Below, one piece after another: positions 13,365-31,594 of a stretch of 64,000 nucleotides of DNA. The stretch lies in assembly GCA_022843855.1 (NCBI GenBank), contig JALHMV010000001.1, positions 2,780 through 66,779 on the forward strand, written 5' to 3'. This DNA comes from Patescibacteria group bacterium. Its GTDB lineage: Bacteria > Patescibacteriota > UBA1384 > 2-12-FULL-50-11. Under the pieces are notes generated by a model. It did not search any database. It saw only the letters and a program-made list of their open reading frames with translations, and was not told the DNA's origin. Position numbers and translations under genes: made by a program. Position 1 is the first letter of the stretch, and every line of letters starts with the position of its first letter.

Positions 13365-13423
13365 AACGGAACAAGTGTAGGAGATTTGTAGTCATTTTTC
13401 TAGTTTCGGCGTATCAATACTAT

Positions 13424-15514: not shown

Positions 15515-16246
15515 ATGGCTGGTCACTCCAAGTGGGCACAAATTAAACGACAGAAAGGCGTCGCCGATCAACGACGAGGCGCGGCGTTTAGTAAATTAAC
15601 CAATGCGATTACGATCGCGGCCAAAAACGGGTCTGACCCAGAGATGAACTTTCAGCTACGCATCGCCATCGACAAAGCCAAGGCGGCCAACATGCCAAAA
15701 GACAATATTCAGCGAGCGATCGACAAAGCGACCGGCGCGGGCGGACAAGCTCAGTTGGAAGAAGTTGTTTACGAGGCATACGGCCCCGGCGGCACAGCAT
15801 TCATGATCGAAACCGCCAGCGATAATCGGAACCGAACAGTCGGCGAGATTAGAGCGACACTCAATAAGCTTGATGGCAAGTTAGCCGAGACAGGTTCGGT
15901 TGGCTATCTGTTTAAAAAACGAGGGGTCATTACCGTTGAGACAACAGACATTGAACAAGCCGAGCTCGCTGCCATCGACGCCGGCGCCGAAGATTTTGAG
16001 CCGACCGAAACCGGCCTCATCGTTTACACTGATCCGAAGGAAATCGAGAATGTTCGCCGAGCACTGAGCACTAACGGCCTGGAGGCAACCGAAGTAGCGC
16101 TAGAGTTTCATCCGACTTCCATCGTCCAAGTGAGCGACCCCGGAGTTGCCAAAAAAAATATTACGCTTTCAGAAACCCTCGACGAGCTCGATGACGTTGT
16201 GACCGTATCAAGCAACTTCGACGTCGACGAAAACCTGCTACAGTAA
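15515..16246 (+). CDS. yebC: YebC/PmpR family transcriptional regulator
   Basis: MAGHSKWAQIKRQKG...; 243 aa. Confidence 0.9.
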   Translation: MAGHSKWAQIKRQKGVADQRRGAAFSKLTNAITIAAKNGSDPEMNFQLRIAIDKAKAANMPKDNIQRAIDKATGAGGQAQLEEVVYEAYGPGGTAFMIETASDNRNRTVGEIRATLNKLDGKLAETGSVGYLFKKRGVITVETTDIEQAELAAIDAGAEDFEPTETGLIVYTDPKEIENVRRALSTNGLEATEVALEFHPTSIVQVSDPGVAKKNITLSETLDELDDVVTVSSNFDVDENLLQ

Positions 16247-16253
16247 GCTACGC

Positions 16254-16739
16254 ATGGAGGGGAAACGCATTTTGGGGGTTGACCCTGGTTCAGGCCGCCT
16301 CGGCCTAGGACTAATCGAGATTGTAAACAACAAACCCCATCTAATTCATTACGACTGCATCACCACGACGCCAAACGCGCCGGAGACGCAAAAGCTTAAA
16401 CACATCTATGAAGAACTCGTCCACCGACTGAGCGAAATTAAACCCGACGTGCTAACGATCGAGACTCTCTTTTTCACCCGCAACGTCACGAGCGCCTTCT
16501 CGGTCGGTCAGGCGCGGGGCGTTGTCCTACTTGCTGCCGCACAAGCCAACATAGAAGTTACCGAGATCGCACCACTACGCTTAAAGAAGGTGCTACTCGG
16601 CAACGGCACGGCCAAGAAAAAAGATATTCAAAATTTTATCCGCCACTACTTTGATATCGACGACAAAAAGAAGCTCGGCGACGACGCCGCCGACGCTGTT
16701 GCGATCGCTTTAAGCCAGGTTCTTCAGCCCGAAACCTGA
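16254..16739 (+). CDS. ruvC: crossover junction endodeoxyribonuclease RuvC
   Basis: ILGVDPGSGRLGLGLIE with catalytic Asp; 161 aa, downstream of yebC. Confidence 0.85.
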   Translation: MEGKRILGVDPGSGRLGLGLIEIVNNKPHLIHYDCITTTPNAPETQKLKHIYEELVHRLSEIKPDVLTIETLFFTRNVTSAFSVGQARGVVLLAAAQANIEVTEIAPLRLKKVLLGNGTAKKKDIQNFIRHYFDIDDKKKLGDDAADAVAIALSQVLQPET

Positions 16740-17860
16740 GGGGGGTTAGGCTCTCCCCAAATTCCCGTGCCGTTAAGGGCGTCAACAAGAACCGCCTTTA
16801 TTCGTTCGATCGCAAAATCTGCTCGTTCGTGTACCGCCGGATCCTCGCTCGACTTCTTTAGCTGCGTCCAGTAGTTCAGCTCACCAATGCCCCTGTTGCA
16901 GAGCATATTTGCTCGAAAGCAAATCGGGAAGTCTTCGTTATTGCGAGCTGCGGCCGAGCGATACAATTGCTCCTGAAGCTCAGGACTATGAAAGAGGTCA
17001 ATGAATAAAAAGGCGTAATCAGACGAAGGGTCGTTAACCCGATTGAGCCGTTCCCAGTCAAAAAAACCGATCTTGCCGTTTTCTTGCTTAATAATATTTG
17101 TCGGGTTAATGTCACCGGCGACTAACTTGGTTGGTGTTCGATCAAAGACTTCCTTCGACTGCTCCAGGAAATCTGCTGCCTGTTGATAAGCCTTCTGGCC
17201 AAGGTGTTCGGCAAGCGCTGACGACCAACTATTGAACTTCTTCTTAAAGTGATCGTAAGCAGAGCGTGTTTCCACATCAAGATCAGTCACCGATCTCTCA
17301 TTGAGATTGGCGTATTTTCCAAAAGTATCGATAAACTCAACGATCGTCTCCATATCTTCCGGTGTAATTAAATCCGGTGATGCTTCGTGAATAGTACCGA
17401 GCAACTTCCCTTTGAACATATTCTCAACAAGATATGTAGGTCGATCAGGCTCGGTACACGACTGGCTGATCGTAGGGAAATCCGCTTTTTCTTGGAGATC
17501 AGGCGGAAACTGTTGGTAAACATCAGGGGCGATATCTCTCAGGAAAACTATCTCGTTAAGTCCATTGACATAACTTCCATCACCTGGTTCCGGACCAAGC
17601 TTGTAGATCGAGGAATGCTCGTTAGAGCTTTCGCCGATATCAACTACCTCCGCAACCGTAAATGGACGTTCGGCTTCGGAAAAGATTCGACCGTTATAAA
17701 AGTCTCGATCGATCTCGTACGCTCTTCCGCCCTGGATAATTTGGTACGGAAAAACTCCCAGCTCCTTAAGATCGGCCTGGACCAGCTCGAGCCGGGAGAT
17801 TGGCTCTCCTTCGGGCTTTTCGTCCATCGCATCCGGCTGGTAGCCCAACGATTCAGGCAT
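16724..17860 (-). CDS. APH/choline-kinase-fold phosphotransferase (putative sugar or small-molecule kinase)
   Basis: Kinase-fold catalytic block LVAGDINPTNIIKQ...FFDWERL (HGD/DxxxxN ... D[FW]E pattern). Last gene of a GT4 operon. Confidence 0.6.
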   Translation of the reverse strand: MPESLGYQPDAMDEKPEGEPISRLELVQADLKELGVFPYQIIQGGRAYEIDRDFYNGRIFSEAERPFTVAEVVDIGESSNEHSSIYKLGPEPGDGSYVNGLNEIVFLRDIAPDVYQQFPPDLQEKADFPTISQSCTEPDRPTYLVENMFKGKLLGTIHEASPDLITPEDMETIVEFIDTFGKYANLNERSVTDLDVETRSAYDHFKKKFNSWSSALAEHLGQKAYQQAADFLEQSKEVFDRTPTKLVAGDINPTNIIKQENGKIGFFDWERLNRVNDPSSDYAFLFIDLFHSPELQEQLYRSAAARNNEDFPICFRANMLCNRGIGELNYWTQLKKSSEDPAVHERADFAIERIKAVLVDALNGTGIWGEPNPPQVSG

Positions 17861-17861
17861 C

Positions 17862-18947
17862 TCAACTCTTCGTCGCTACCTCTTTGAGAACTTTTTCGAA
17901 TGTTGTGAGATACTCGGCGACAACCCGATCACTGGAAAAACGCTGTTCGGCAACTCTACGACAATGTTCGCGACTAATCGAGTCAATCTTTTCCATCGCC
18001 GCTTTGATCTCATCCACGCTATCCGCCAAGAAGCCGGTTTCGCCATCATTAACAACTTCGGGCATCGCGCCGTTTGACGAAGCAATAACCGGTGTCCCGG
18101 CAGCGAGCGCTTCGATCGCGACTAAGCCAAAAGCCTCGCTCATCTGAGTCGGAAAGATAAAGCCTTTCGCATCAGCGTAAATGGGCGGCAGTTCACTGTG
18201 TGGCTTCGCGCCTAGATAGCGAATCTTTTCACCGTCGACATACGGCTTAATCTCACTATCAAAGTAATCCTGGTCGTTGGGGTAGACCGGTCCGATAATA
18301 TCCAAAGGCTGTCCGAGCTGGTGGGCCGCCTGGACAGCGAGGTGCGCCCCTTTCGATCGTAAAATCCGCGAAACAAACAGCCACCGTTCGCCCGCCTCTT
18401 TTTTCCACGGATAACTTTCGATTTCGAGCCCGTGGTAAATGGTTGCCGCCCACCGAGCATCCGGTAGCGGCTCTTTTTGTTTTTCTGAAATCGCGATAAA
18501 GAAAATATTCTTCAAGTCACGATGCGCATCGTGATTAGCGTGGATATTTTCGACATCAAGCGGGTTATGAAGGGTGAAGACAACCGGGGTATCCGGCATT
18601 ACGCGAGCAAACGGTAAGGCCAGTAAGAAGCTATCAAGGTGAATGACGTCGAATTCTTTGGCGCGCGCTGCGATATGCGACAGAAAAACAGCATCGCCCC
18701 AAATCGTCATTTCTTGCTTCATCCCCGGGGGGACGGTCTCCCACCGCGGATCTTCGTTGACGGCGACAAAGTTACAGTCCACAAGTGTGGCTGGAGTTTT
18801 GGTGCCTTTGGGCGCGAACCAGGTCACCTCGTGCCCCTGAGCGAGAAAGCCGCGGGTCAGCTGATCCGCCACATCGTAGGGAGCAAAAACCTTACCCGCT
18901 GGGTAGGGGAAGGCGTACTTCGAAGTAACAAATTTAGCGATCTTCAT
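17862..18947 (-). CDS. glycosyltransferase family 4 (GT-B fold)
   Basis: E-x7-E type motif EAFGLVAIEALAAGTPVIASSNGAMPEVV..GETGFL. Confidence 0.8.
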   Translation of the reverse strand: MKIAKFVTSKYAFPYPAGKVFAPYDVADQLTRGFLAQGHEVTWFAPKGTKTPATLVDCNFVAVNEDPRWETVPPGMKQEMTIWGDAVFLSHIAARAKEFDVIHLDSFLLALPFARVMPDTPVVFTLHNPLDVENIHANHDAHRDLKNIFFIAISEKQKEPLPDARWAATIYHGLEIESYPWKKEAGERWLFVSRILRSKGAHLAVQAAHQLGQPLDIIGPVYPNDQDYFDSEIKPYVDGEKIRYLGAKPHSELPPIYADAKGFIFPTQMSEAFGLVAIEALAAGTPVIASSNGAMPEVVNDGETGFLADSVDEIKAAMEKIDSISREHCRRVAEQRFSSDRVVAEYLTTFEKVLKEVATKS

Positions 18948-20007
18948 TTTTGAGAAGAACGCTTTGGTAGGCAGCGAGGTAGCTCTTCGTCATTGCTTCG
19001 ACGGAGAACTTTTCCTCTGCGCGACGTCGGCAGGCCGAACGATTGAGTGAGGCAACCTTACCGATCGCCTCGACAAAAGCCGTTTCGTCGTCGGGCTTGA
19101 TCAGGAAACCGGTTCGACCGTCTTCGATGAGTTCGGCCATCGCCCCACGGTTGTAGGTAATAACTGGTGTGCCGCAGGCCATTGATTCGGCCACTACTAG
19201 TCCGAATGGTTCGTCCCACTGAATGGGGTTGACCAGCGCTAAGGCATCGCCGTATAGCTTGTTTTTTTCGTCGTGACCGACTTCGCCAACCCATTCGGCA
19301 ACGCCGGGTTTAAGTCGGGGCTTAACCTCCGCTTCAAAGTATTCCAAGTCTGCCGGCGCCTGCTGATCCAGCTTGGCCGCCATCAACAACTTCATACCGA
19401 CACGCGCAGCAAATTCGATCGCCAAATGTGGCGCTTTCGTCTTAGTGAATCTACCAACCCACAGTAAGTAATCGGCTTTTGGCGAGTCGTTGAAAGTAAA
19501 CGATCCAACGTTAATCCCGTTGTAGGCTGTTGCCACCCAATTGAGGAATTGAGCGTTGACACGCTGGTAGTCGCTAATCGAGATAAAGGATTGATTCTTA
19601 TAGCGCTCGAACGTTCGAATCCGATCTTCCGGAATTTCTTTGGCGTTCAGTGTACCGTGAATCGTGTTGACGAACGGGACTTTTGAGAGCGACATCATCG
19701 CCAGCGAGCGATGGGATTGGTGGTTGTGGATAATATCCGCGCCGATCTCTTCGGCGTAACGAATCGCTTCTGCAACGTGGAGCAGCGTATCGTACATCGA
19801 CGTCCACGGTACTCCGTCGCGATAAAGCGCCCGAGGATAGGTCGAAACCAGCTTAGCACTCGTCTGCGAGTCACCGGTCGCAAACAGTGTTACTTCATGC
19901 CCCTCCTTTACTAACTCTTCGGTCAGATTTGAAACTACCAGCTCGAGACCACCGTATTTGGGCGGTGGCGTCGTTTCCCACAGCGACGAAATTTGAACGA
20001 TTTTCAT
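18934..20007 (-). CDS. glycosyltransferase family 4
   Basis: EPFGLVVAESMACGTPVITYNRGAMAELIEDGRTGFL. Start placed at MKIVQISS, the usual GT4 N-terminus, rather than the listed 20043. Confidence 0.8.
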   Translation of the reverse strand: MKIVQISSLWETTPPPKYGGLELVVSNLTEELVKEGHEVTLFATGDSQTSAKLVSTYPRALYRDGVPWTSMYDTLLHVAEAIRYAEEIGADIIHNHQSHRSLAMMSLSKVPFVNTIHGTLNAKEIPEDRIRTFERYKNQSFISISDYQRVNAQFLNWVATAYNGINVGSFTFNDSPKADYLLWVGRFTKTKAPHLAIEFAARVGMKLLMAAKLDQQAPADLEYFEAEVKPRLKPGVAEWVGEVGHDEKNKLYGDALALVNPIQWDEPFGLVVAESMACGTPVITYNRGAMAELIEDGRTGFLIKPDDETAFVEAIGKVASLNRSACRRRAEEKFSVEAMTKSYLAAYQSVLLKNEDR

Positions 20008-20073
20008 TGGTTTCACGTTCTCAGATTTGGGCCGTACAGACAACAGGCGGATATGCGTTAGAATGGAATCACT

Positions 20074-21150
20074 ATGAGAATCGCTCTTGTCGCGCCACCA
20101 TTTTTGTCGATCCCACCTAAGAAACAGGGTGGGACCGAGGCTGTCTTAACAGTCAAAATCAACGAACTTGTCCGGCTCGGCCACGACGTCACGCTCTTCT
20201 GTGCAGGCGATGCAGCCTTTGAAGGGATCAAGACCATAAGCATCTACCCGACTCCGATCAACGATCTTCCGGCCGATCTCCAAAGCCAGGAGTCGTCACG
20301 AAAACTACGCCTAGAGATGACGTACTTTGCAGCCGTCGCGACCGAGCTTATAAAGAGCGATGGCGATTTCGACATAATCTTTAATCACACTCGGGGTGAA
20401 GTTTCGTTTGCACCCCTAACCAACTTCCTAAGAACACCCGTTATTTCGATCTTTCATCTGCCGCTCCTAGAAGAAAACGTCGCCGTTCTCGAACAAAACC
20501 CGAAAGCATTTGCTATCTCAATCAGCGACAACCAACGCGGTCGGTTTGCTTCACTGAAGAACTTTGTCGCCACCGTTTATAACGGCGTCGATCTGGAAGT
20601 CTACAAGCCAGCCGAATCACCGAAACGGGATTTTGTTTTTTGGATCGGCACCGTTGGCGAGCACAAAAACACGTTGGACGCGATATCTGCCGCCAAACTG
20701 GCTGGTCAGAAGATCGTGTTGGCTGGCAAAATTCGTGACCAGCAATATCATCACGAGAAAATTGAACCACTTATCGACAATTCATCGGTTCGCTATCTTG
20801 GCGAGATCGACTTAGGGGAGAAGATTCCGCTCCTGCAAAACGCCAAAGCGGTACTCTTCCCAACGAAATGGGCTGAACCATTTGGTTTGGTGATGATCGA
20901 GGCGCTCGCCTGCGGTACGCCGGTCATTGCCTACCCCAACGGTGCCGTACCGGAAGTAATTACCGACAAAATTGGGGCAATCGTGACAAGCGTCGACGAA
21001 ATGGCAAAGGCAATCAGGGTGATTGATCAGATTGACCCAGCCCAGTGTCGAGCGCGGGTAGAAGAAAAATTTAGCGCCAGCGTCATGACACAGAATTACG
21101 TCCAGGCGGCAGAACGGGTTTTTCATGGCGACATTCCTTCGAATAACTGA
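20074..21150 (+). CDS. glycosyltransferase family 4
   Basis: MRIALVAPPF... and EPFGLVMIEALACGTPVIAYPNGAVPEVI. Confidence 0.8.
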   Translation: MRIALVAPPFLSIPPKKQGGTEAVLTVKINELVRLGHDVTLFCAGDAAFEGIKTISIYPTPINDLPADLQSQESSRKLRLEMTYFAAVATELIKSDGDFDIIFNHTRGEVSFAPLTNFLRTPVISIFHLPLLEENVAVLEQNPKAFAISISDNQRGRFASLKNFVATVYNGVDLEVYKPAESPKRDFVFWIGTVGEHKNTLDAISAAKLAGQKIVLAGKIRDQQYHHEKIEPLIDNSSVRYLGEIDLGEKIPLLQNAKAVLFPTKWAEPFGLVMIEALACGTPVIAYPNGAVPEVITDKIGAIVTSVDEMAKAIRVIDQIDPAQCRARVEEKFSASVMTQNYVQAAERVFHGDIPSNN

Positions 21151-21187
21151 TACAATTCGTACGGCAAAAACGAACGGATAGCCCACT

Positions 21188-22468
21188 ATGAAAATACTTC
21201 AACTTCTAGTGTTTCCGCTCTGGGGAAGCGGCAGCGGTACGTACGCTCGCAAGCTTTCTGAGAGCCTCGTCAAACTCGGCCATGACGTCGCGATGATTGC
21301 TCCCGAACACCGGGAGCTGGAGGGCGTCAAAATTTACCCGATCGAGCTACCGGTTAAGGCCGCCTTCACGATGCACCCGGAGTGGCCTAACTCAAAGCGT
21401 TTCTCGGATCTGACCGATCATCAGATCTCTGAGTACTATATGGTTTGGCTCAAGAAGATCGTTCAGGTCGTCGAGGAGTACAAGCCTGACGTCATCCACG
21501 TGCATCACGCCTCGATGCTCTCGTGGATCGCTTCGTATATAAAAAGTATCTACGGGATTAACTACGTCGTCTCGGTCCACGGCACATGCATTATGAACGC
21601 GAGTATCGACCTGCGCTACGTATCACAGACAAAGCTGGCGCTTGACCGAGCAGAGTTTATCGTGCCAGTGTCTGGCGACACTCGCAGCTGGATGCTAAAA
21701 GTCCTCGGCCGAACACTCAATCGGAGAAGTCGAGTTATTACCGGTGGCATCGACTTAAAGGTCTTCCCCAAGAAACTTGATATCAGAACTATCGATGACA
21801 AATTCAACATGAAGGGTAAGCGCGTCGTGCTATTCAGCGGGAAGCTAACCAAAATCAAAGGCGTTGACTACCTCATTAAGGCAGCGTCAAAGATCAGCGC
21901 CGAGATCTACATTGCTGGTGACGGTGAAGAGCGGAAGAACCTTGAGAAGCTTGCCGATAAGCTTGATGCCAAAAATGTCACTTTCCTCGGCTATTTTGAT
22001 AAATCAGACGCCGAAACACTTCGTCAGCTCTACGCACGAGCCGACGTGGCAGTCTTCCCGTCTGTTTGGGACGAACCGTTGGGCCTAGTGATTCTCGAAT
22101 CGATGGCTGCTTCAACACCCGTCGTCGCCAGTCGCAAAGGCGGTATCCCGCTCGCGGTTAAGCACGGTGTTAACGGGTACTTGGTCCGCGCTCGTTCGTC
22201 GAAAGAGATTGCTGACGCAGTTAACAAGATTCTCAATAACCCGTCTCTGCAAAAAACAATGGGTGAAAACGCCCGGCGGATCGCCGAGGAAAAGTTCTCC
22301 TGGACACTCATTGCCAAGAACTTCGTCAAGCTGTACGACGTCGCCGTTGATCGAGCCGAGTCGTCTCGAACGACCCGCCGACTCCGCAGGCAGCAGCAAA
22401 AGCGTGAACTCAACCGCATCGAGCAAGAAAAGAGTCACCTACACACCCACAACGTCGAGCTCAGCTAG
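21188..22468 (+). CDS. glycosyltransferase family 4 with basic C-terminal tail
   Basis: MKILQLLVFPLWGSGSGT... and DEPLGLVILESMAASTPVVASRKGGIPLAV. Confidence 0.8.
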   Translation: MKILQLLVFPLWGSGSGTYARKLSESLVKLGHDVAMIAPEHRELEGVKIYPIELPVKAAFTMHPEWPNSKRFSDLTDHQISEYYMVWLKKIVQVVEEYKPDVIHVHHASMLSWIASYIKSIYGINYVVSVHGTCIMNASIDLRYVSQTKLALDRAEFIVPVSGDTRSWMLKVLGRTLNRRSRVITGGIDLKVFPKKLDIRTIDDKFNMKGKRVVLFSGKLTKIKGVDYLIKAASKISAEIYIAGDGEERKNLEKLADKLDAKNVTFLGYFDKSDAETLRQLYARADVAVFPSVWDEPLGLVILESMAASTPVVASRKGGIPLAVKHGVNGYLVRARSSKEIADAVNKILNNPSLQKTMGENARRIAEEKFSWTLIAKNFVKLYDVAVDRAESSRTTRRLRRQQQKRELNRIEQEKSHLHTHNVELS

Positions 22469-23489
22469 TTTTACGTGTTATCTGACTCTGCCGCAGATAC
22501 TTGGCTGCTTCTTCGGGACTCATTACATCAACAACAACTCCAGAGCCAAGCTCATAGCCGCCGTAGGTACCCAAGCGCGGAGCTATCTCGATATGCCAGC
22601 GGAAGAACTCACTATTCTTGACTGAATCTGGTAAGTCGTGAAGGAAAAAATTTAGCGCTGGCTGTTTTAGTACACGCGCGTAGCGACTCATAACGTCTTT
22701 CATTATTTGCCCTAGAGAGTGGATAAACGTTTCCGAAGTATCTTCAAAATGGGCTGACGGCTCTTTCGGCAACACCCAAACCTCAAAGGGAAATCGAGCG
22801 GCGTAAAAGGTAAAGGCAATAAACTCGTCGTTTTCGGCGATAATTCGATCCTTCTCTTTCTTCTCGTGAAAAATCAAATCTTCAAATACATTCTTGCCGT
22901 TATTAATAAAGTACTGCTCAGCGCCGTTCATCTCCCGAACTATTTGATTCGGGATAATATTAGCTGCAAAAATTTGAGCGTGCGGATGGGCGATCGAGGC
23001 TCCTGCTTTCGGACCGTGATTATAAATGAGCATTGTGTGCTCGGCGTTACAATCTTTACGCCAGTATTTGAAACGACGTTTTGAAACCGAGAAAAGCTCG
23101 TACCATTGTTGGGTCGAGAAAGAATAAATTGTATCTTCAGCCTGTTTAACGATCAGAACATCGTGACCGCCAGTCGATGGTCGGGCAGCGTAGAAGTTGC
23201 TCTCCAGTCGATAAGTTCTCGGAGAACACGAGGCAGGATCCTCAAGAAACACCGGATACTTATTTGGAATAACGTAGATATGCTTCGTCTCGTAATCTTT
23301 GAGACGCTGTCTTTGATACTGGTCACCATCCAGCGAGAACGGATCGTTTTCCCCGGATTCTGGTTTGATTGTTTCAGCGCTCACAAAATCCGAAGGGCGT
23401 TTCGAGCGTTCCGGCGCGATCACTACCCACTCGCCGGTAATAATATTCTGCCGCAACTGAGGCATGGGCTTATTGTGCCATAGAGTCAA
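22461..23489 (-). CDS. GalT-like HIT-family nucleotidyltransferase (hexose-1-phosphate uridylyltransferase-like)
   Basis: ITGEWVVIAPERSKRP, NKYPVF and HxHxQ motif IAHPHAQIF; 342 aa. Confidence 0.7.
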   Translation of the reverse strand: MTLWHNKPMPQLRQNIITGEWVVIAPERSKRPSDFVSAETIKPESGENDPFSLDGDQYQRQRLKDYETKHIYVIPNKYPVFLEDPASCSPRTYRLESNFYAARPSTGGHDVLIVKQAEDTIYSFSTQQWYELFSVSKRRFKYWRKDCNAEHTMLIYNHGPKAGASIAHPHAQIFAANIIPNQIVREMNGAEQYFINNGKNVFEDLIFHEKKEKDRIIAENDEFIAFTFYAARFPFEVWVLPKEPSAHFEDTSETFIHSLGQIMKDVMSRYARVLKQPALNFFLHDLPDSVKNSEFFRWHIEIAPRLGTYGGYELGSGVVVDVMSPEEAAKYLRQSQITRKTS

Positions 23490-23534
23490 AATTGTGACGA
23501 GTTAACGGATTTCGACTACGATACAGAAGAGGGG

Positions 23535-25742
23535 ATGAAATATCAGTACGGCGAGTTTTCAGCTCAGGGCGATCAGTTTTTTGTTCAGCGCGTTGACACG
23601 CCGCAGCCTTGGCACAATCAGCTCAGCAGCAACGATGTCTATAGTCGCATTTCTCAGGTAGGCCAAGGCGAGTTACGTTTTCTCAACCAGCACGCAACCC
23701 CCATTACAAGACGACTCATCTTTGTTCGCGATAACGATAGCAGCGAGTCCTGGAACGCTACCGGCAACGACCAGACTGCGTTCGATCACTTTCAAGCCGT
23801 TCACGCACAATGGCACACCAGAATCGAGACGGTCCATCAGGCTATCAGCTCTTCAACGACGTTCTTTTTACCCGAGGACGAACCGCTCGAAGTCTGGCGG
23901 GTGAAGGTCAGTAATCAATCAAGGACGAAAAGACGACTAACGCTTTTTGCGGGAGTGTTGTGGGGGAACAAAGCAAGTGAGACGTTTGAAACACGGCACA
24001 GCCACGGCATTCTTTTTGGCGACGATCGTTCGATTGAAGATGGGGCGACGCTCTTCGTAACCGCTACACGAACAATTGACAGCTTCGAAACACAGGCATC
24101 CGCGTTCATCGGACGACGCGGCACGCTCGAAGCACCCGAAGCCGTCGCCGAAGGCAAGCTCTCGCGAAGCGCCGGCGCCGGCGACCAGGCGTTAGGCGTC
24201 ACACAAATAAATCTCACCCTCGGCGCCGGTGACGAGACTGAGATTATCCTGCTTGTCGGCGCAGTAACCGGAAAAGGCTCAACCGCTGCAAAGCGGCGAG
24301 CCGACGCTGACCGACGAATAAAAGCGATTCGACAACGTTATCAAGAAGCAGGCAGAGTTGGTGAAGCGATGATTCGTTGCGAACAGTCCTACTCAACGTT
24401 AACCCAACGCATCTTAGTAAAAAGTAGCGACTCAGTTTTTGACGCATTCTTCAACTATTGGAAGAAGCATCAAGCGATTGCGGCGCTACGAGCTAGCCAA
24501 TCAGAACTTGAGAAGCTTACGATAGCTGCCAGCCTGACCGCTCTCGACCCGGAACAAACCCGACGCACCTTAGTTGATGCCCTCCAAAGACAACATCGAG
24601 ACGGATCGGTCGTTTTTGATGATAATCCCGATGGTCACTTATCGTTATTAACGACTGCGGTAGCGTATTTAACCGAAACCGCTAACCTAGCATTTCTTGG
24701 CGAGAAACGCGGATACGCCGATGCGAGCGAAGCCTCCGTTCTCCACCACCTTACTCGAGCCGTCGATCGATCGCTTAAAAGCCTGTCGTCACGCGGCCTT
24801 CCCGCTCAACAGACTATTGCCGTGATAAGCAACCCCGTAGTTCGTGAGCGATTCGAGACGGCCTGCCTTCTTTACTCGGCATTGCGCGGGCTACTACCGA
24901 TTCTCGACGCTGTCGGCGAGCACGAGCTCGTTCACCGCTACGACCGGGCAGCCGAGAAACTTCGTACTTCAATCAACGCCCACTTCTGGCAAAACTCGTG
25001 GTATGCGTCCGAGCTAGAGAACGGTCGGGCAACCCTCGGTCGCAGAGGCGCCGAGGCGTATCGGATCGGCCTCCGGGAACAGGCAATCGCCGTATTGAGC
25101 GGGGTTAGCACTCGTGATCACGGCCACAAAGCGCTTAGCGAAGCGGAGCGGTCGCTAGCAACTAAGGTTGGAGCGCTCAACTTCGCCCCTGCATTCGCGA
25201 CACCAACAAGTACGCCGGCGTCGATGGCAGCCCCTGGCTGCGGAACTAACAGCACAGTCGTCAATCGTGACGTCGCGCTCGCCGTGGCAGCATTGGCAAA
25301 GCTTGGGGAGGGGGACGAGGCCTTTCGCGTCTGGCAACGCAGCTGCCCGGCATCTCTCGGTGCGCACCCCGACCAATACCGAGCAGAGCCGTTCGCCTTT
25401 TCAGCTGGATTGGCCGGTCCAAGTCAGTCTGCTTTTGGCTGGGGGAGCGGTGCTTCGACCGACCCCGCACCGGCGCTCTTTTGGCAAGCCATGCTTGAAA
25501 ATGTCATCGGCTTACAGCCGACGCTTGGCGGCCTCAAAATTGATCCCTGCCTCCCACGTGATTGGCGAAAAGTCGAAGTAACACGCACGTTTCGCGGTGC
25601 CGAATATCACATTAGAATCGTTAACTCACTGCGATCCAACCGAGGCGTTGACCGAATACTTGTTGACGGAGTACGTATCACTGGCAGCGTTGTCCCACCG
25701 CAAGGAACCGGCGTTCACTTCGTAGAAGCTGTACTCGGCTAA
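23535..25742 (+). CDS. GH94-like glycoside phosphorylase (cellobiose/chitobiose phosphorylase family)
   Basis: The N-terminal block DTPQPWHNQLSSNDVYSRISQVGQGELRF...IFVRDNDSSESWNA...LTLFAGVLW aligns with the cellobiose phosphorylase N-terminal beta-sandwich pattern; 735 aa. Confidence 0.55.
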   Translation: MKYQYGEFSAQGDQFFVQRVDTPQPWHNQLSSNDVYSRISQVGQGELRFLNQHATPITRRLIFVRDNDSSESWNATGNDQTAFDHFQAVHAQWHTRIETVHQAISSSTTFFLPEDEPLEVWRVKVSNQSRTKRRLTLFAGVLWGNKASETFETRHSHGILFGDDRSIEDGATLFVTATRTIDSFETQASAFIGRRGTLEAPEAVAEGKLSRSAGAGDQALGVTQINLTLGAGDETEIILLVGAVTGKGSTAAKRRADADRRIKAIRQRYQEAGRVGEAMIRCEQSYSTLTQRILVKSSDSVFDAFFNYWKKHQAIAALRASQSELEKLTIAASLTALDPEQTRRTLVDALQRQHRDGSVVFDDNPDGHLSLLTTAVAYLTETANLAFLGEKRGYADASEASVLHHLTRAVDRSLKSLSSRGLPAQQTIAVISNPVVRERFETACLLYSALRGLLPILDAVGEHELVHRYDRAAEKLRTSINAHFWQNSWYASELENGRATLGRRGAEAYRIGLREQAIAVLSGVSTRDHGHKALSEAERSLATKVGALNFAPAFATPTSTPASMAAPGCGTNSTVVNRDVALAVAALAKLGEGDEAFRVWQRSCPASLGAHPDQYRAEPFAFSAGLAGPSQSAFGWGSGASTDPAPALFWQAMLENVIGLQPTLGGLKIDPCLPRDWRKVEVTRTFRGAEYHIRIVNSLRSNRGVDRILVDGVRITGSVVPPQGTGVHFVEAVLG

Positions 25743-25929
25743 AATAATCCCTGCTCGACGGGTAGGCGAATCGGTTGGAGAAACTCTTCCGCTGACTGTC
25801 GGCTACTCTGGTATTGGACCAGAAGAGAAAACGCGCTAACCGCAAGAACGCAGAAAAAAATTAGCATATACCAAATGAGTGGGGGACTTTCCTTGTGGTG
25901 ATGCTTCATTAAAACTAGACTACACCAAA

Positions 25930-27939
25930 ATGGCCGAGCAGATTACTCTCTCTACCCCGCTGGACCAGCTGGCCGGCGTTGGTCCCGAAACAGCTAAACG
26001 GCTTTACCGACTCGGACTAATAACAGTTAAAAATTTGATTGAATTTCTGCCCCGGCGGATTGAAGATCGTAGCCGTCTCTGCCACATTCAGAAGCTTGTC
26101 GTTGGCGAGGCCATGGTGATTAGGGGGCAGATCGAGCGGGTTTCAGGGCGATACAGTCAGCGCGGTGTTTTTATTGTTACGGCTAGAATGTGCGATTCAA
26201 GCGGTGCAATCAACGCCGTTTGGTTCAACCAACGGTACCTCCTTCGCTCGTTGAAGGCAGGTCAGCACATCACCCTGTTCGGCGAGAAGCGTCTGGTCAA
26301 AACGATGGGTAATCCTTTTTTTGTCAAAAAAATTATCGAACAACCGGAGATCGTTCCGATCTATCCATTGACCGGCGGACTAACTCAAAATACCCTCGCC
26401 CATCTTCTAGGCAAGGTAGAGCCACTTGTAGCACGCATACCCAACGTCATCCCGCCCTCAATTCAAGCCGAGCGACAGCTGAGCAACCGCGCCGAGTGCT
26501 TGATGCGCGTCCACTACAACCCGAGCGCTGAGGCGCTGGAGGAAGCTATCGCGCTACTCGGTTTTGAGGAGCTACTGATCACGTGTCTGCTGGCGCTGGA
26601 AGCAAAGGAAGAACGTCGACGACAAATCGGCGCCACCCGGCCGATTAGCCGTGACCAGCTCGACGCTGCTTTGCTGAGATTTGATTTTCAGCCGACCGCC
26701 GGTCAGCGTCTAGCCTGTCGTGAAATTGCTGACGATCTTAGTCGATCGTATCCGATGAATCGCTTGCTCTACGGCGAGGTGGGCAGCGGCAAAACAGCCG
26801 TTGGGCTCGCAGCAGCGCTCAGCGTCGCGTCGACTGGTCAGCGCGTCCTGTGGCTCTCTCCAACCGTAACACTCGCTGAGCAACAGGCCCGTATCACCAG
26901 CGAATACGCTCGACAATTTGACCAACAAACAACGCTCATCACCAGACACACCTCAAAGGATATCGGTACCGCTCGACTTGTTATCGGCACCCATGCGGTT
27001 CTACGCGATACATACGACTTCGGTGACGTGGGCCTCATAGTTATCGACGAACAGCAACGCTTTGGCGTCGAACAACGCAACACACTCTTAAAAAGATACC
27101 CGAGCGCCCACCTTCTCATGATGAGCGCCACACCGATCCCTCGCACTCTCGCTCACACACTTTTTGGCCATCTCGACATTACCTATCTTCGCGACAAGCC
27201 TCGGCATCAGGTAGAGATAGCAACCAGGGTCTTTCGCGATGCCAGTCGCGAAAAAGTTGAACAACACCTCGCCGAGCGGCTCTCGGCCGGGCAACCCGGG
27301 TACGTCATTTGCCCGCTTATCACCGACCCCGAAAACGACGCCACCTTGTTTGCCGACGAACGAAAAGCGGTTCAGTCAGAGTTTCGCCGTCTCCACACGA
27401 TCTTCCCACAAGCTCGAATCGGCTTCATCCACGGCCAGCTTAAGAATGACCAGAAGGAAAAAGTAATGGAGGAGTTTCGACTCGGCCGATTAGATATCTT
27501 AGTTGCTACAAGCATTATCGAGGTCGGCATCGATAATCAAGCCGCCACGTGGATCGTCATCGAAGAGGCCGACCGCTTTGGCCTCTCGCAGCTTCACCAG
27601 TTGCGCGGTCGGGTCGGTCGCGGTTCCCAGCTCTCTGTCTGCTTCCTTCACAATTCGCTCTCCACTGACAACGCCACTGAACGTCTAAGTGCTCTGGCGA
27701 AAGCGCGTGATGGCCTGGAGATTGCCGAGCTTGACCTCAAGCTGCGCGGTCCCGGCAATATCGCGGGCAACGAACAAAGTGGCTTGCCCAACGTTCGCTA
27801 CGCCGACTTGAGCAACCTTGAGACGATTAAGGCTGCCTACGCGGCCGCTGAAAAAATTGGCATCAGCAACCTCGCGCAGTATCCTGATTTAGAACGAGAA
27901 CTAAAAAGCTGGCAAAACAATGAACGTGCCTCAACTTGA
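25930..27939 (+). CDS. recG: ATP-dependent DNA helicase RecG
   Basis: Wedge/OB N-terminus, Walker A GEVGSGKT, DEQQRFG, and the C-terminal RGRVGRG. Confidence 0.9.
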   Translation: MAEQITLSTPLDQLAGVGPETAKRLYRLGLITVKNLIEFLPRRIEDRSRLCHIQKLVVGEAMVIRGQIERVSGRYSQRGVFIVTARMCDSSGAINAVWFNQRYLLRSLKAGQHITLFGEKRLVKTMGNPFFVKKIIEQPEIVPIYPLTGGLTQNTLAHLLGKVEPLVARIPNVIPPSIQAERQLSNRAECLMRVHYNPSAEALEEAIALLGFEELLITCLLALEAKEERRRQIGATRPISRDQLDAALLRFDFQPTAGQRLACREIADDLSRSYPMNRLLYGEVGSGKTAVGLAAALSVASTGQRVLWLSPTVTLAEQQARITSEYARQFDQQTTLITRHTSKDIGTARLVIGTHAVLRDTYDFGDVGLIVIDEQQRFGVEQRNTLLKRYPSAHLLMMSATPIPRTLAHTLFGHLDITYLRDKPRHQVEIATRVFRDASREKVEQHLAERLSAGQPGYVICPLITDPENDATLFADERKAVQSEFRRLHTIFPQARIGFIHGQLKNDQKEKVMEEFRLGRLDILVATSIIEVGIDNQAATWIVIEEADRFGLSQLHQLRGRVGRGSQLSVCFLHNSLSTDNATERLSALAKARDGLEIAELDLKLRGPGNIAGNEQSGLPNVRYADLSNLETIKAAYAAAEKIGISNLAQYPDLERELKSWQNNERAST

Positions 27940-28348
27940 ACAAGAGCTAACGAGCCGTTTTGGCTGGGTAGCAACAATTCTCTTGGTCGCTGGTTCGGCG
28001 TTTCTAATCGGCAACACGTACCAGCCGCGGGATACCGTCACCGAGGAAGACGGCGTTACACCGAGCAATACGACGATTTCACCGGTGATCGAACAAATCC
28101 AACAGACGCTCGCTAACGATCAAGCGGAGGTTGGGGAGTTACCTGAGAACGTAACCGGAGTGGTGAGCATCAACTCAGGCACGCTCGCCGAACTCGACAC
28201 CTTGCCGGGTATCGGGCCGGCCAAAGCGCAAGCGATCATCGACTACCGAACGCAGAACGGCCCGTTTGTCCGGATTGATGATCTTCTCAACGTCAGCGGC
28301 ATCGGCCCAAAGACTTTAGAGCAACTGCGTAGTCAAATCTCACTCTGA
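27920..28348 (+). CDS. comEA: competence protein ComEA (HhH DNA-binding)
   Basis: N-terminal TM, then LDTLPGIGPAKAQAIIDYR...LLNVSGIGPKTLEQL helix-hairpin-helix repeats. Confidence 0.75.
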   Translation: MNVPQLEQELTSRFGWVATILLVAGSAFLIGNTYQPRDTVTEEDGVTPSNTTISPVIEQIQQTLANDQAEVGELPENVTGVVSINSGTLAELDTLPGIGPAKAQAIIDYRTQNGPFVRIDDLLNVSGIGPKTLEQLRSQISL

Positions 28349-28793: not shown

Positions 28794-29514
28794 GATGTCG
28801 CGGTCGATGAAATGGTGGATCTGGTCCTCTGTGCTTATTTTGGGCAGCGGTCTACTTTTTTATATCCTTGGTCCGGTCCTATTTGCGAGCGTTGCCTACC
28901 CGCTCAAGTACGAGGCCTCACTCTGTAAGTGGAGCAAGGAGTACGGCGTCGACGTCCATCTCGAAGCGGCAAAGATTATGGCTGAAAGTACTTGGAATCC
29001 CAACGCTCGTTCGTACGCTGGAGCGGTCGGGTTGACCCAGTTCATGCCAGCGACCGGGAAGCGGGTTTATACGACGCTCTACGGCGCCGAAGCGGGAGCA
29101 AGATTCAACGCCAATCAACTACTCGGCAACCCCGACTTGGCGATTCAAATGGGCACATTCCACCTCAAGGAGCTGAGCGACCGCTACGGCGGTAATCTAA
29201 CCAAAGTGCTAATCGCTTACAACGGTGGCGGCGGTGCGGTCCGTCTTTACGAAGCCGGAACTCCAATTACGAGTACCGTTGGCTATGCCAAGAAGATACT
29301 GGCGATGCGCGACGCTTATATAAAGATCTACGGCGACTTCTGTGCTCGGTTGGCGTCCAGACAGTTCGATGTCGAGCCGAGGCGCGATCTATCGGCAATT
29401 GGCAGCATTCCGCTGACTGAATTTTGGCGCAACTTTCTCTTTGTCCAGCGCGCTGATACGACCGACGAGCCGATCCCTCCGATACAAGATTTGTGGCAGA
29501 ACTTACTCCGTTAG
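28794..29514 (+). CDS. lytic transglycosylase (SLT domain) with N-terminal membrane anchor
   Basis: ESTWNPNARSYAGAVGLTQFMPATG (SLT catalytic Glu block), then YNGG. Confidence 0.7.
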
Positions 29515-29522
29515 GCCGTACA

Positions 29523-31208: not shown

Positions 31209-31594
31209 GCCTTCGGTTGTCGAGCAAGCGCGGCCTCGTACTCGGCCTTTTTGTCATCAGCCATCTCAACAATCTGACTGAATTGCTCACCGGCTTGATA
31301 CGCGGTGTCTCCGAGCTCTTGCATATCTTCGATAGCGGCTTCGATAAAACCGCCCTTAAATTTCAAAACAGCAGAATCATACGCGAGAAGAAAGCGAGCG
31401 GTGTCGCCGTCTGCTTCTTTGTCGGCTAAGTGCGCTCCAAGTTCCTGGAAGTAGCCAAGTAACTTAGGGGTTAGCGGATTGCCTGCCTCTATGTCTGACT
31501 CAATCGCCGCCATTTGGCTACGAATGTTCTCGGTCTCAACGTTGTCCGGCGTCTCGCTAGTTTCTGGTGCGGGTTGGGGTTCATTCTCGTTCAT
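31205..31594 (-). CDS. small acidic hypothetical protein
   Basis: Start placed at MNENEPQ with the AAAGGAAAA region upstream. The listed 238 aa ORF extends upstream into the divergent ftsA region and is probably over-called. Confidence 0.4.
   Translation of the reverse strand: MNENEPQPAPETSETPDNVETENIRSQMAAIESDIEAGNPLTPKLLGYFQELGAHLADKEADGDTARFLLAYDSAVLKFKGGFIEAAIEDMQELGDTAYQAGEQFSQIVEMADDKKAEYEAALARQPKA

Follow-up and report, generated by a model that had tools for sequence, protein, structure and literature searches.

Several described systems come close to the cluster analysed here. The GNB/LNB operon lnpABCD of Bifidobacterium combines a GH112 phosphorylase with the APH-fold N-acetylhexosamine 1-kinase NahK, a class II GalT and GalE. 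In Thermosynechococcus elongatus, tll1590-tll1591 encode a sucrose-phosphate synthase (SPS; tll1590 is TeSPS according to the TeGSS paper) and the glucosylsucrose synthase TeGSS (PDB 6KIH, 7FG9), i.e. a cyanobacterial UDP-Glc alpha-1,2-glucosyltransferase. Single enzymes with a bearing on the cluster are At5g18200 (1Z84), whose identity as the Arabidopsis ADP-glucose phosphorylase we confirmed, and the GH94 phosphorylases VpChBP (1V7V, chitobiose phosphorylase) and CtCBP (3QDE, cellobiose phosphorylase). Finally, the classical Leloir pathway is encoded by galK-galT-galE and pgm.

The window, i.e. the whole 64-kb stretch of DNA that was analysed, holds a seven-gene cluster between ruvC and recG that encodes four GT4 glycosyltransferases, one protein-kinase-like small-molecule kinase (Kin), one GalT-branch HIT enzyme with an HPHAQ motif and one GH94 homolog. 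By comparing it with related loci (numbered with the prefix L), we arrive at the view that the cluster most likely leads from sugar phosphates via nucleotide sugars to an alpha-linked glucoside inside the cell.

Gene content of the cluster

The seven open reading frames lie exactly at the boundaries, and on the strands, given in a preliminary description of this DNA, and the family assignments made there were borne out by Pfam domains and matches to solved structures. As orthologues that are 40-81% identical occur in other genomes, the frames represent genes and not chance ORFs. The features are as follows.

15515..16739, plus strand: yebC-ruvC, conserved left anchor of the island (Pfam TACO1/YebC, RuvC)
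16724..17860, minus strand: Kin, protein-kinase-like (APH/choline-kinase fold) small-molecule kinase (catalytic residues; Pfam APH below cutoff)
17862..18947, minus strand: GT4_2, fast-evolving paralog of the TeGSS family (Pfam GT4 domains)
18934..20043, minus strand: GT4_1, close TeGSS homolog (7FG9/8X3Q match; likely start 20007)
20074..21150, plus strand: GT4_3, paralog of the TeGSS family in which donor and acceptor residues differ (Pfam GT4 domains)
21188..22468, plus strand: GT4_4, conserved core GT4 of 426 aa (Glycos_transf_1)
22461..23489, minus strand: GalT-branch HIT hexose-1-phosphate nucleotidyltransferase, ADP-glucose-phosphorylase-like (GalP_UDP_transf and GalP_UDP_tr_C; likely start 23465)
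23535..25742, plus strand: GH94-derived pseudo-phosphorylase (Pfam GH94 supersandwich and catalytic domains)
25879..28348, plus strand: recG-comEA, right boundary in the lineage of the window (Pfam RecG wedge, DEAD, HHH_3)

The two corrected starts follow from ortholog alignments and correspond to M13 in GT4_1 and M9 in the GalT-like protein. None of the seven cluster proteins has a transmembrane segment.

All four glycosyltransferases carry the Pfam domains Glycos_transf_1 and Glyco_transf_4 (E 1e-21 to 1e-41), but the earlier characterization as four paralogs holds for three of them: GT4_1, GT4_2 and GT4_3 belong to the TeGSS family and are 35-36% identical to each other, whereas GT4_4 is a distinct, longer GT4. 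GT4_1 matches the solved structures 7FG9/8X3Q over its full length (E 2e-88, 300 bits), is 46% identical to TeGSS, likewise full length, and conserves the equivalents of TeGSS Trp10, Tyr18, Arg179 and Lys184. GT4_2 is 35% identical to TeGSS and has the E-x7-E motif; its orthologs in L004 and L005 are only 44-46% identical (dN 0.39 for L004 versus L005). GT4_3 (36% identical to TeGSS) keeps E-x7-E, has Gln and Thr at the positions equivalent to Tyr18 and Arg179, as does the L004 ortholog, and has orthologs that are 73-77% identical.

GT4_4 (Glycos_transf_1 E 1.4e-41) is strongly conserved, with 79-81% identity in L004 and L005 and a dN of 0.026, and a GT4_4-like gene directly follows the GalT-like gene in many loci, including L029, L031, L034, L037, L040-43, L057 and L084. 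Its best NCBIfam matches, glgA_Coryne (145 bits; a model that we take to be that of the GlgM family) and BshA (140 bits), are both under cutoff, and it stays below every curated NCBIfam cutoff. The best solved structures are BshA (2JJM), the Tll1590 protein (6KIH) and alpha-maltose-1-P synthase (6TVP). The enzymes that it matches best (the GlgM family, BshA, MshA, TeSPS) all use small soluble acceptors; with GT4_4 under the curated cutoffs, a small soluble acceptor for GT4_4 itself is a guess.

The GalT-like protein contains both GalT half-domains, with HPHAQ at residues 168-172 and Ser165 at position -3, and in this respect it is the GalT-branch HIT enzyme that it had been taken for. The name uridylyltransferase that went with it fits less well, in that the protein is closer to At5g18200, its best match among solved structures (E 7.7e-43, 150 bits; 28% identical, full length), than to E. 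coli GalT (1.6e-18, 70 bits) and falls under both NCBIfam GalT cutoffs. In addition, DPFS stands in place of the CxxC zinc pair. Homologs of the GalT-like gene in other bacteria (L063, L067) are followed by UDP-galactopyranose mutase, which points to UDP-Gal chemistry rather than to ADP-Glc phosphorolysis.

Variation of the island and the pathway it may encode

The neighbours yebC-ruvC are common to L003-L005, L017-L020 and most metagenomic loci, and the order yebC-ruvC-GalT-like is constant in about 45 metagenomic loci. After it come exchangeable cassettes that encode soluble enzymes (GT4s, GT5+GH57, GH130, APH-like kinases), often with a phosphoglucomutase (PGM) gene before ruvA; no PGM gene was found in the 64-kb window. 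On the right, recG-comEA also forms the boundary in L004, L017-L020, L025, L030 and L088, and ruvA/ruvB does so in the more distant relatives L052, L084 and L090. Of 31 informative loci, 27 encode a glycosyltransferase, which in 22 of them is directly adjacent; the same 31 loci hold APH-like/Kin kinases (9), PGM (7), GH94 (8) and GH130 (3). In the closest relatives (L004, L005, L018) the six genes other than the kinase are conserved together, yet across loci the set of seven is not fixed, and the proposal of a self-contained unit could not be upheld. The constant part is limited to the GalT-like gene, as a rule accompanied by a GT4_4-type gene. In relatives with the same flanks the other glycosyltransferases (replaced in L017, L019 and L020), the kinase and GH94 are exchanged or missing, or give way to GH130 or glycogen-type GT5+GH57 cassettes; the GT5+GH57 cassettes fill this slot in L019, L021 and L044.

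The reading that we prefer, with slightly more confidence than doubt, is that of a variable cytoplasmic carbohydrate island that makes a soluble alpha-glucoside from hexose phosphate via NDP-hexose and has retained a dead GH94. The island would have been inserted after yebC-ruvC in Saccharibacteria-type (CPR) bacteria, the window representing one version of it. Its constant element, the HIT enzyme, would interconvert hexose-1-phosphate and NDP-hexose, either by uridylyl exchange or in the manner of the nearest characterised enzyme, which phosphorolyses the nucleotide sugar reversibly (NDP-Glc + Pi <-> Glc-1-P + NDP). The NDP-hexose would be consumed by the core glycosyltransferase GT4_4, the product of which may be extended by the TeGSS-type alpha-glucosyltransferases GT4_1, GT4_2 and GT4_3. 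A soluble oligomeric alpha-glucoside would result, comparable to glucosylsucrose and serving as a compatible solute or as a storage glycan. Kin would phosphorylate a free sugar that feeds the pathway, directly at C1, or at C6 and then via PGM, which is island-encoded in relatives. The Leloir-like logic proposed before is coherent: a kinase and a hexose-1-phosphate nucleotidyltransferase, joined by PGM in relatives, would supply the glycosyltransferases.

Alternatively, the island could make a cell-surface glycopolymer or glycolipid (of the wall-polysaccharide, teichoic-acid or S-layer glycan type), with export and lipid-carrier steps encoded elsewhere in the genome and with cassette variability reflecting the diversifying selection that hosts or phages exert on the surface of an epibiont. 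We regard this as possible but rather unlikely. Surface-glycan loci contain GT4 more often than any other family, the glycosyltransferase content differs wholly between L017, L018, L019 and L020 despite identical flanks, and other islands hold GT2, polysaccharide pyruvyl transferase, NAD-dependent epimerase and GFO-type oxidoreductase genes; surface-polysaccharide loci, too, typically have a hypervariable set of glycosyltransferases as well as genes for GT2, pyruvyl transferase and epimerase. One island (L043) encodes a 6-TM protein, which would fit a surface product. However, about 20 related islands yielded no polyprenyl-phosphate glycosyltransferase, flippase, polymerase or ABC exporter, and membrane proteins are all but missing from them. 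Moreover, glycogen-type GT5+GH57, cytoplasmic phosphorylases, sugar kinases and PGM occupy the same slot, and GT4_1 closely resembles an enzyme that elongates a soluble sugar.

The kinase and the GH94 homolog

Kin scores 22.0 bits against Pfam APH (cutoff 23.2) and belongs to a rare family, with 76 representatives at E<=1e-3 among 1.84 billion proteins; among 38 family members the protein-kinase-like catalytic residues K87, E103, N255 and D268 are invariant and D250 is nearly so. A profile search of solved structures gave weak APH and LicA matches only. The structure comparison proposed for predicting its substrate was carried out on a poor AlphaFold model (pLDDT 57), for which Foldseek returned generic matches (YtaA, APH(9) and LicA at TM about 0.35). 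Family members occur at the end of glycosyltransferase islands (L003, L052, L083, L084/85, L088/89, L090/91), and in six of eight independent contexts members that are 22-61% identical adjoin glycosyltransferase genes, three of them directly before PGM (in the order glycosyltransferases, kinase, PGM-ruvA in L052, L084 and L090).

That Kin acts outside the sugar pathway, as a choline/ethanolamine-type, antibiotic or protein kinase that is a chance neighbour in a compact genome, appears improbable. Its best sequence matches are indeed the choline kinase LicA and a generic APH protein, Pfam Choline_kinase is touched by four of the 38 family members, the clusters of the closest relatives L004 and L005 are without the kinase, and the two members without neighbouring glycosyltransferase genes (L001/2, L087) lie beside dnaK/dnaJ or a nucleoside hydrolase. 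Nevertheless, relatives at 22-33% identity are found directly after glycosyltransferase genes, before PGM, in the independent islands L052, L083, L084, L088 and L090, and further APH-like kinases recur in the same islands. Beyond the common fold Kin has no specific similarity to resistance kinases, and it does not group with them.

The GH94 homolog contains both Pfam GH94 domains (E 2e-36 and 4e-35) and has 1V7V as its best solved structure (E 1.4e-54). Deletions have removed the G(Y/F)RD segment (near residue 320) and ADWND with the catalytic Asp (residues 425-431 read QQTIAVI), the phosphate-binding His is replaced (V576-N577-R578) and TG(S/T)xxW is replaced by D643-PAPA-L648. All four motifs are absent from the window, L004, L005 and L017-L023, and present in L024/25, L030, L006, L015 and the canonical GH94s. 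An intact GH94 is encoded at the equivalent island position in the sister lineages L025 and L030; against 3QDE the intact L025 orthologue scores 484 bits and the window protein 171. In the gene tree of the GalT-like protein, loci whose GH94 is dead group together in a single clade. The dead protein evolves 8-14 times faster than its neighbours, with a dN of 0.355 versus 0.045 for the GalT-like protein and 0.026 for GT4_4 (0.026-0.12 for the well-conserved neighbours GT4_4, GalT-like, GT4_1 and GT4_3), whereas in the intact pair L025/L030 the dN of GH94 (0.068) is lower than that of GalT-like (0.119). As dS is saturated, purifying selection on the dead GH94 is deduced solely from two observations: pN (0.28) is much lower than pS (0.77), and the ORF is intact in at least 9 genomes. 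Judged by its motifs, the window protein is a retained pseudo-phosphorylase and not a recycling enzyme, a member of GH94 by fold and sequence only.

GT4 enzymes make alpha-linkages and GH94 enzymes are inverting and beta-specific, and therefore the GT4 products would not be cleavable by GH94. The preliminary description had envisaged a self-contained synthesis-and-turnover module, in which an active GH94 recycles a beta-linked disaccharide to sugar-1-phosphate, the kinase and a GalT uridylyltransferase provide Leloir-like salvage and all four GT4s build the same glycan, and although the GH94 domains (E 1e-36 in Pfam, 1e-54 for solved structures), the fit of kinase, GalT-like enzyme and relatives' PGM to a Leloir enzyme set, and the intact sister-lineage enzymes speak for it, the loss of all four catalytic and phosphate-binding motifs from the window protein and its whole clade, the accelerated evolution of the protein, the mismatch in linkage and the unfixed gene set (no kinase in L004/L005, other glycosyltransferases in L017/L019/L020, GH94 in just 8 of 31 loci) make it very unlikely. 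Within the soluble-glucoside reading, the GH94 ancestor would have been a cellobiose/chitobiose-type phosphorylase that once supplied sugar-1-phosphate, as the enzyme of the sister lineages may still do, and the dead protein would be preserved, less constrained than before, for some role other than catalysis.

Comparison with known systems

In contrast to lnpABCD, the phosphorylase homolog of the window belongs to GH94 and is predicted from its motifs to be catalytically dead, the HIT enzyme is class-I/ADP-Glc-phosphorylase-like and not class II, GalE is absent from the cluster, four biosynthetic GT4s are attached, and Kin has no detectable specific similarity to NahK. The island shares with the Leloir genes the combination, in relatives, of a kinase, a GalT-branch enzyme and PGM, but Kin has a protein-kinase-like and not a GHMP fold, the window lacks GalE and GalM, the HIT enzyme scores below the GalT cutoffs of NCBIfam, and the enzymes are wired to glycosyltransferases and not to catabolism.

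Like VpChBP and CtCBP, the GH94 homolog has an N-terminal supersandwich, an (alpha/alpha)6 domain and a highly conserved C-terminal domain, and it descends from an intact enzyme that persists in sister lineages; it differs in missing the catalytic Asp/Trp of ADWND, the sugar-binding pair of G(Y/F)RD, the phosphate-binding His and TG(S/T)xxW, in its length (735 aa, not 770-820) and in its much faster evolution. The GalT-like protein keeps the HxHxQ motif and the two HIT half-domains of At5g18200, but its identity to that enzyme is low, the zinc Cys pair is gone (DPFS, not CPFC) and related bacterial homologs adjoin UDP-galactopyranose mutase; its nucleotide and acceptor specificity are putative.

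With respect to tll1590-tll1591, the cluster has three TeGSS-type paralogs rather than one, of which GT4_3 lacks the Tyr18 and Arg179 equivalents; a sucrose-phosphate phosphatase was not seen in it, and GT4_4 resembles SPS no more than it does BshA or GlgM and stays under all curated cutoffs. The likeness lies in GT4_1 with its retained catalytic residues, in the common family membership of GT4_2 and GT4_3, and in the presence nearby of a second, longer GT4 with a weak SPS match, namely GT4_4.

The gene block and its flanks

The seven open reading frames described earlier from the sequence were recovered with exactly the same boundaries and strands, and Pfam bore out the family assignments made for the four glycosyltransferases of family GT4, the GalT-like protein and the GH94 homolog.

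Genes of the block (coordinates in the window, strand, assignment)
16724-17860, minus: kinase (Kin), sub-threshold Pfam APH match
17862-18947, minus: glycosyltransferase GT4_2, Pfam GT4 domains
18934-20043, minus: glycosyltransferase GT4_1, Pfam GT4 domains; similar to TeGSS, the Thermosynechococcus glucosylsucrose synthase
20074-21150, plus: glycosyltransferase GT4_3, Pfam GT4 domains
21188-22468, plus: glycosyltransferase GT4_4, Pfam GT4 domains; 426 aa
22461-23489, minus: GalT-like HIT enzyme, both GalT half-domains and the HIT domain (Pfam)
23535-25742, plus: GH94 homolog, both GH94 domains (Pfam)

Alignment with orthologs yields shorter starts for two of these genes and suggests that translation truly begins at M9 (23465) in the GalT-like gene and at M13 (20007) in GT4_1, i.e. 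the GT4 gene at 18934. The block is bounded by housekeeping genes, namely dnaK, grpE, comEC, an MBL-fold gene, yebC and ruvC on one side and recG, comEA, a tRNA-Leu and an SLT gene on the other. The convergent pairs overlap at their 3' ends (kinase and ruvC by 16 bp, 16724-16739; GT4_4 and the GalT-like gene by 8 bp, 22461-22468), which leaves no space for terminators between them, and scans for promoters and terminators performed no better on the window than on shuffled sequence. A GC-rich hairpin followed by a T-run lies on the minus strand (16693-16675) within the 3' end of ruvC, just downstream of the stop codon of the kinase. A search of the window against Rfam returned tRNAs only, and hence no riboswitch. 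A role in anti-phage defence, an idea prompted by Pfam matches to 'GT4-conflict' and TCAD9, was ruled out by the absence of any PADLOC match among the seven block proteins.

Several genes further along the window are of separate interest. An alanyl-tRNA-synthetase-like ORF (29493-31208; tRNA-synt_2c and tRNA_SAD) has only 571 aa and apparently misses the usual C-terminal region. Three large ORFs of 592, 703 and 537 aa (32992-34770, 56114-58225 and 59329-60942) have no Pfam match at E<=1e-6; near them are found an FtsA/PilM-like ORF (31479-32990) and a protein with Big_5 and Peptidase_C39-like domains (36686-38602).

A variable carbohydrate island behind yebC and ruvC

A metagenome scan with the GalT-like protein retrieved 66 loci. 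The order yebC, ruvC, GalT-like gene recurs in about 45 of them, with the GalT-like proteins at 44-60% identity, and is then followed by different sets of soluble enzymes. One type of cassette combines GT4_4-like and TeGSS-like GT4s, with or without a GT2. A second type holds a GT5 of the starch-synthase type, a GH57 and an APH-like kinase (L019, L021, L044); at L019 (11091-16296) this glycogen-type cassette stands in place of the GT4s and encodes two GT5 starch-synthase-like proteins, a GH57 and an APH-like kinase of 286 aa. A third type (L017, L020, L025, L030, L035) consists of a GT4, an (alpha/alpha)6-like protein and an APH-like kinase, joined by either a GH130 or a GFO-type oxidoreductase. 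The (alpha/alpha)6-like protein is an unannotated protein of about 350 aa with weak GH88/C5-epimerase-like matches (L017 10993-15279, L025 11046-15222, also L020 and L030); the GH130 is a homolog of beta-mannoside phosphorylase, and the oxidoreductase belongs to the GFO/IDH/MocA type. The island is often closed by PGM and then ruvA.

Among the 31 loci with enough sequence, a glycosyltransferase is present in 27 and adjoins the GalT-like gene in 22; an APH-like or Kin kinase occurs in 9, PGM in 7, GH94 in 8 and GH130 in 3, all of these counts being lower bounds because the contigs are incomplete. Neither PGM nor ruvA was found in the 64-kb window. At L052, L084/L085 and L090/L091 the order reads yebC-ruvC, then the GalT-like gene, glycosyltransferases, an APH-like kinase, Kin and PGM, then ruvA-ruvB, so that the island lies between ruvC and ruvA-ruvB; in the lineage of the window, where yebC-ruvC occupy 15515-16739, the island is followed by recG-comEA instead.

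The closest relatives of the block are L004, L005 and L018. In L005, a Candidatus Saccharibacteria MAG and the closest locus from a named genome, the gene order is that of the window, and identities are 90% for RuvC, 80-88% for YebC and 81% for GT4_4; the window itself therefore most likely belongs to a Saccharibacteria genome (CPR/Patescibacteria). The island of L018 is syntenic except for an additional ORF (about 13370-14315; about 251 aa) that matches nothing in the reference set and is located between the orthologs of GT4_3 and GT4_1. The seven genes had been proposed to form one self-contained unit, which this comparison does not support: the six non-kinase genes occur together in L004, L005 and L018 only, and the kinase is absent from L004 and L005. 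Since these three loci share the housekeeping flanks as well, their synteny by itself says little about functional coupling. The Saccharibacteria, like other CPR bacteria, live as obligate epibionts and have very small genomes; their carbohydrate metabolism is almost wholly inferred, and a slot with a constant first gene and swapped glycan cassettes gives a testable handle on the way they activate sugars and on the glycans they make.

The enzymes encoded in the block

The GalT-like protein carries the features of the GalT branch of HIT enzymes, i.e. matches to both PF01087 and PF02744, the HPHAQ motif noticed earlier (residues 168-172) and Ser165 three residues upstream of it. The more specific name of uridylyltransferase did not stand. 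The protein scores below both NCBIfam cutoffs for GalT (TIGR00209, 98.7 vs 102.1 bits; NF008724, 123 vs 448 bits), and its best solved relative is At5g18200 of Arabidopsis (E 7.7e-43, 150 bits, full length, 28% identity), which is an ADP-glucose phosphorylase, whereas E. coli GalT reaches 70 bits (E 1.6e-18). The Cys-x-x-Cys pair of the structural zinc site is missing: 'NDPFSL' aligns with 'SCPFCI' of At5g18200, both cysteines being replaced, also in L004 and L005. On sequence, phosphorolysis and nucleotidyl exchange are both candidate activities. More distant GalT-like homologs outside the group have mostly housekeeping genes as neighbours, except in two loci. At these loci (L063 1488-2600 and L067 11020-12132), the homologs are 30-34% identical to the window protein and 34-36% to At5g18200, and a gene of 370 aa follows, which in L067 is a UDP-galactopyranose mutase according to Pfam (a match seen for the L067 copy only). 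The presence of this mutase behind more distant bacterial homologs keeps UDP-Gal chemistry among the candidate activities.

The kinase belongs to a rare family. In an exhaustive HMMER search of 1.84 billion proteins, only 76 representatives had E<=1e-3. The catalytic set of protein-kinase-like enzymes is conserved across 38 homologs: K87, E103, D250-x4-N255 ('GDINPTN') and D268 ('DWE'). The Pfam APH score (22.0) is just under the cutoff of 23.2, and sequence and profile searches against solved structures gave weak generic matches to an APH-family protein and the choline kinase LicA. AlphaFold models were poor (pLDDT 43 from three sequences; 57 from five, with the N-lobe still poor), and Foldseek with the latter, low-confidence model retrieved generic APH, ChoK and YtaA folds at TM about 0.35. 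The model is compatible with a generic APH/ChoK fold, at which level a fold search cannot tell an anomeric sugar kinase from other kinases. NahK and maltokinase were absent from the solved-structure matches and from the best 50 Foldseek matches of this low-confidence model (pLDDT 57). Kin does not group with the antibiotic resistance kinases, a grouping that would have spoken against the module of the preliminary description. Genomic context is more informative for Kin than any of these matches, and links this rare family to sugar metabolism.

Genomic context of Kin relatives (22-61% identical to the Kin of the window)
L003: after two GT4s, before ruvC
L052, L084/85, L090/91: after glycosyltransferases and a second APH-like kinase, directly before PGM-ruvA(-ruvB)
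L088/89: after a GT2, a pyruvyl transferase, two GT4s, an epimerase and a GT5; before recG
L083: after a GT4 and a PRTase
L001/2, L087: without adjoining glycosyltransferase genes

All four GT4s combine a Glyco_transf_4 N-domain with a Glycos_transf_1 C-domain (the latter at E 1e-21 to 1e-41 in Pfam) and contain the E-x7-E motif. The basic pair that contacts the donor diphosphate (R/K...K) is kept in GT4_1, GT4_2 and GT4_4; in GT4_3 its first residue is Thr. GT4_1 aligns over its full length with the crystal structure of TeGSS (tll1591, PDB 7FG9; E 2e-88, 300 bits, 46% identity), and the TeGSS residues Trp10, Tyr18, Arg179 and Lys184 are all aligned and conserved. TeGSS is a UDP-Glc alpha-1,2-glucosyltransferase that acts on sucrose or glucosylsucrose. 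Its mutants Y18F and R179A have very low activity (TeGSS paper). GT4_2 and GT4_3 share 35-36% identity with TeGSS as well as with one another and lack some of the four residues; GT4_3, like its ortholog in L004, has Gln at the position of Tyr18 and Thr at that of Arg179. GT4_1, GT4_2 and GT4_3 are accordingly annotated here as predicted TeGSS-type alpha-glucosyltransferases. The nearest characterised relatives of GT4_4 are the GlgM family (glgA_Coryne), BshA, MshA and TeSPS, all of which act on small soluble acceptors, and every match lies below the curated cutoffs. GT4_4 as a sucrose-phosphate synthase was ruled out, there being no SPS match among its best 25 NCBIfam families; nor did NCBIfam identify a sucrose-phosphate synthase or phosphatase in the cluster. 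GT4_4 also has a strongly basic C-terminal tail of about 35 residues (about 390-426; RTTRRLRRQQQKRELNRIEQEK...), which begins where the alignments with all its best solved structures stop (near residue 390) and might bind membranes or polyanions.

The GH94 homolog is a member of its family by homology in both the N-terminal supersandwich and the (alpha/alpha)6 catalytic domain (PF06165, E 4e-35; PF17167, E 2.2e-36; best solved structure 1V7V, E 1.4e-54). Aligned with canonical GH94s and with genomic and metagenomic relatives, the window protein shows the loss or replacement of four hallmark segments: the G(Y/F)RD sugar-binding pair, ADWND, the phosphate-binding His and the TG(S/T)xxW phosphate loop. 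ADWND, which holds the general-acid Asp (ChBP Asp492) together with a Trp, is deleted; the window protein reads 'GLPAQQTIAVISN', with no Asp across about 40 residues. Near residue 320 a deletion has removed the RD segment of G(Y/F)RD; R578 stands in place of the His of the (F/Y)xH motif, and D643-PAPA-L648 in place of TG(S/T)xxW. The same losses are seen in L004, L005, L017, L018, L019, L020 and L021/23. The motifs are intact in L024/25, L030, a Nanoarchaeia sequence (L006), a Chloroflexota sequence (L015) and ordinary GH94s; L024/25 and L030 share the yebC-ruvC and recG flanks and are presumably Saccharibacteria too. Against the cellobiose phosphorylase of Clostridium thermocellum, the intact protein of L025 scores 484 bits and the window protein 171.

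Because dS was saturated in every pair, dN/dS could not be computed and comparisons of dN and of pN/pS were used. Between L004 and L005, dN is 0.355 for the dead GH94, 0.045 for the GalT-like gene, which is among the most conserved of the block, and 0.026 for GT4_4, the most conserved of all (79-81% identity to its orthologs); in the intact pair L025/L030, dN of GH94 (0.068) is lower than that of the GalT-like gene (0.119). The motif losses, a pN (0.28) far below pS (0.77), a full-length ORF in at least nine genomes and a near-invariant C-terminal segment (GGLKIDPCLPRDWRxVEVTRxFRGAxYHIRI) mark the GH94 homolog, as judged from its sequence, as a retained pseudoenzyme and not a decaying pseudogene. 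In a neighbour-joining tree of the adjacent GalT-like gene (without bootstrap), the dead-GH94 loci all fall in one clade, with the intact-GH94 clade as its sister, in keeping with the active site having been lost once. The intact GH94 genes (L025 15362-17680 and L030 6914-9241) are 90% identical to one another and 46-48% identical to those of the Nanoarchaeia MAG (L006) and the Chloroflexota MAG (L015), a pattern that hints at lateral GH94 transfer among small-genome or uncultured lineages.

As retaining transferases, GT4 enzymes form alpha-linkages; GH94 enzymes are inverting and cleave beta-linkages. Independently of the motif loss, a GH94 could therefore never turn over the GT4 products, so that the proposed recycling of a beta-linked disaccharide, and with it the turnover half of the module, has to be given up on both grounds. 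Automated 'cellobiose/chitobiose phosphorylase' annotations would over-predict the use of beta-glucan or chitin in this clade. At the same time, the clade offers a clean natural case of a glycoside phosphorylase that became a retained pseudoenzyme, with intact sister orthologs as controls.

A proposed pathway and its relation to known systems

The reading that we favour, by a modest degree of confidence, is a cytoplasmic route from sugar activation to an alpha-glucoside. Kin would phosphorylate a free hexose, either at C1 or at C6, in the latter case with PGM as the next step; the HIT enzyme would convert the hexose-1-P into an NDP-hexose by exchange or reverse phosphorolysis; GT4_4 would glycosylate a small primer; and GT4_1, GT4_2 and GT4_3 would add alpha-glucosyl residues, giving a soluble oligomer that might serve as a reserve or as a compatible solute. 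An active GH94 would have provided Glc-1-P (or GlcNAc-1-P) from an imported beta-disaccharide in the ancestor, and would do so to this day in L025 and L030; the clade of the window would have lost this input while retaining the protein for something else. The elements on which this route builds are supported individually, i.e. the enzyme families, the constant HIT enzyme that heads the island, the recurrent association with kinase and PGM, the TeGSS-type glycosyltransferases, the cytoplasmic setting and the dead GH94.

The main rival, in which the island makes a surface glycan and the genes for its export are located elsewhere, seems to us clearly less probable. The variability of the cassettes speaks for it, as do the GT2, pyruvyl-transferase and epimerase genes of some islands; on the other side, none of the seven block proteins has a transmembrane segment and almost none was found in about 20 related islands, where, as in the block of the window, no flippase, polymerase, ABC exporter or polyprenyl-phosphate transferase was seen. 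A bolder variant of the cytoplasmic route, which we hold to be rather improbable, would make the HIT enzyme the main or only source of NDP-glucose in these CPR bacteria with reduced genomes, through ADP-/UDP-glucose phosphorolysis run backwards (Glc-1-P + NDP -> NDP-Glc + Pi), a reaction that costs neither NTP nor pyrophosphate. The dead GH94, whose gene invariably stands head-to-head with that of the HIT enzyme in this clade, would have become its sugar-binding regulatory or scaffolding partner. If true, this variant would explain why a hypervariable cytoplasmic glycan island in the yebC-ruvC/ruvAB operon always starts with the HIT gene.

In its logic the cytoplasmic route resembles the bifidobacterial GNB/LNB operon, with its phosphorylase, APH-fold anomeric kinase and GalT, as well as the Leloir pathway and the cyanobacterial SPS/TeGSS pair. 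The block belongs to none of these: its GH94 active site and the Cys pair of the zinc site are missing, the GalT-like protein stays below the GalT cutoffs, and neither NahK nor maltokinase was among the solved-structure matches or the best 50 Foldseek matches of the kinase. Our search of the literature brought up neither an account of the island nor one of degenerate GH94s from Saccharibacteria, and for this group nothing relevant on GH94, GalT or ruvC-linked glycosyltransferases. As a kind of cluster, the combination of nucleotide-sugar supply with glycosyltransferases is already known; what is unusual is the hypervariable island anchored by a HIT enzyme in the yebC-ruvC/ruvAB region, together with its linked rare kinase family and its conserved pseudo-phosphorylase.
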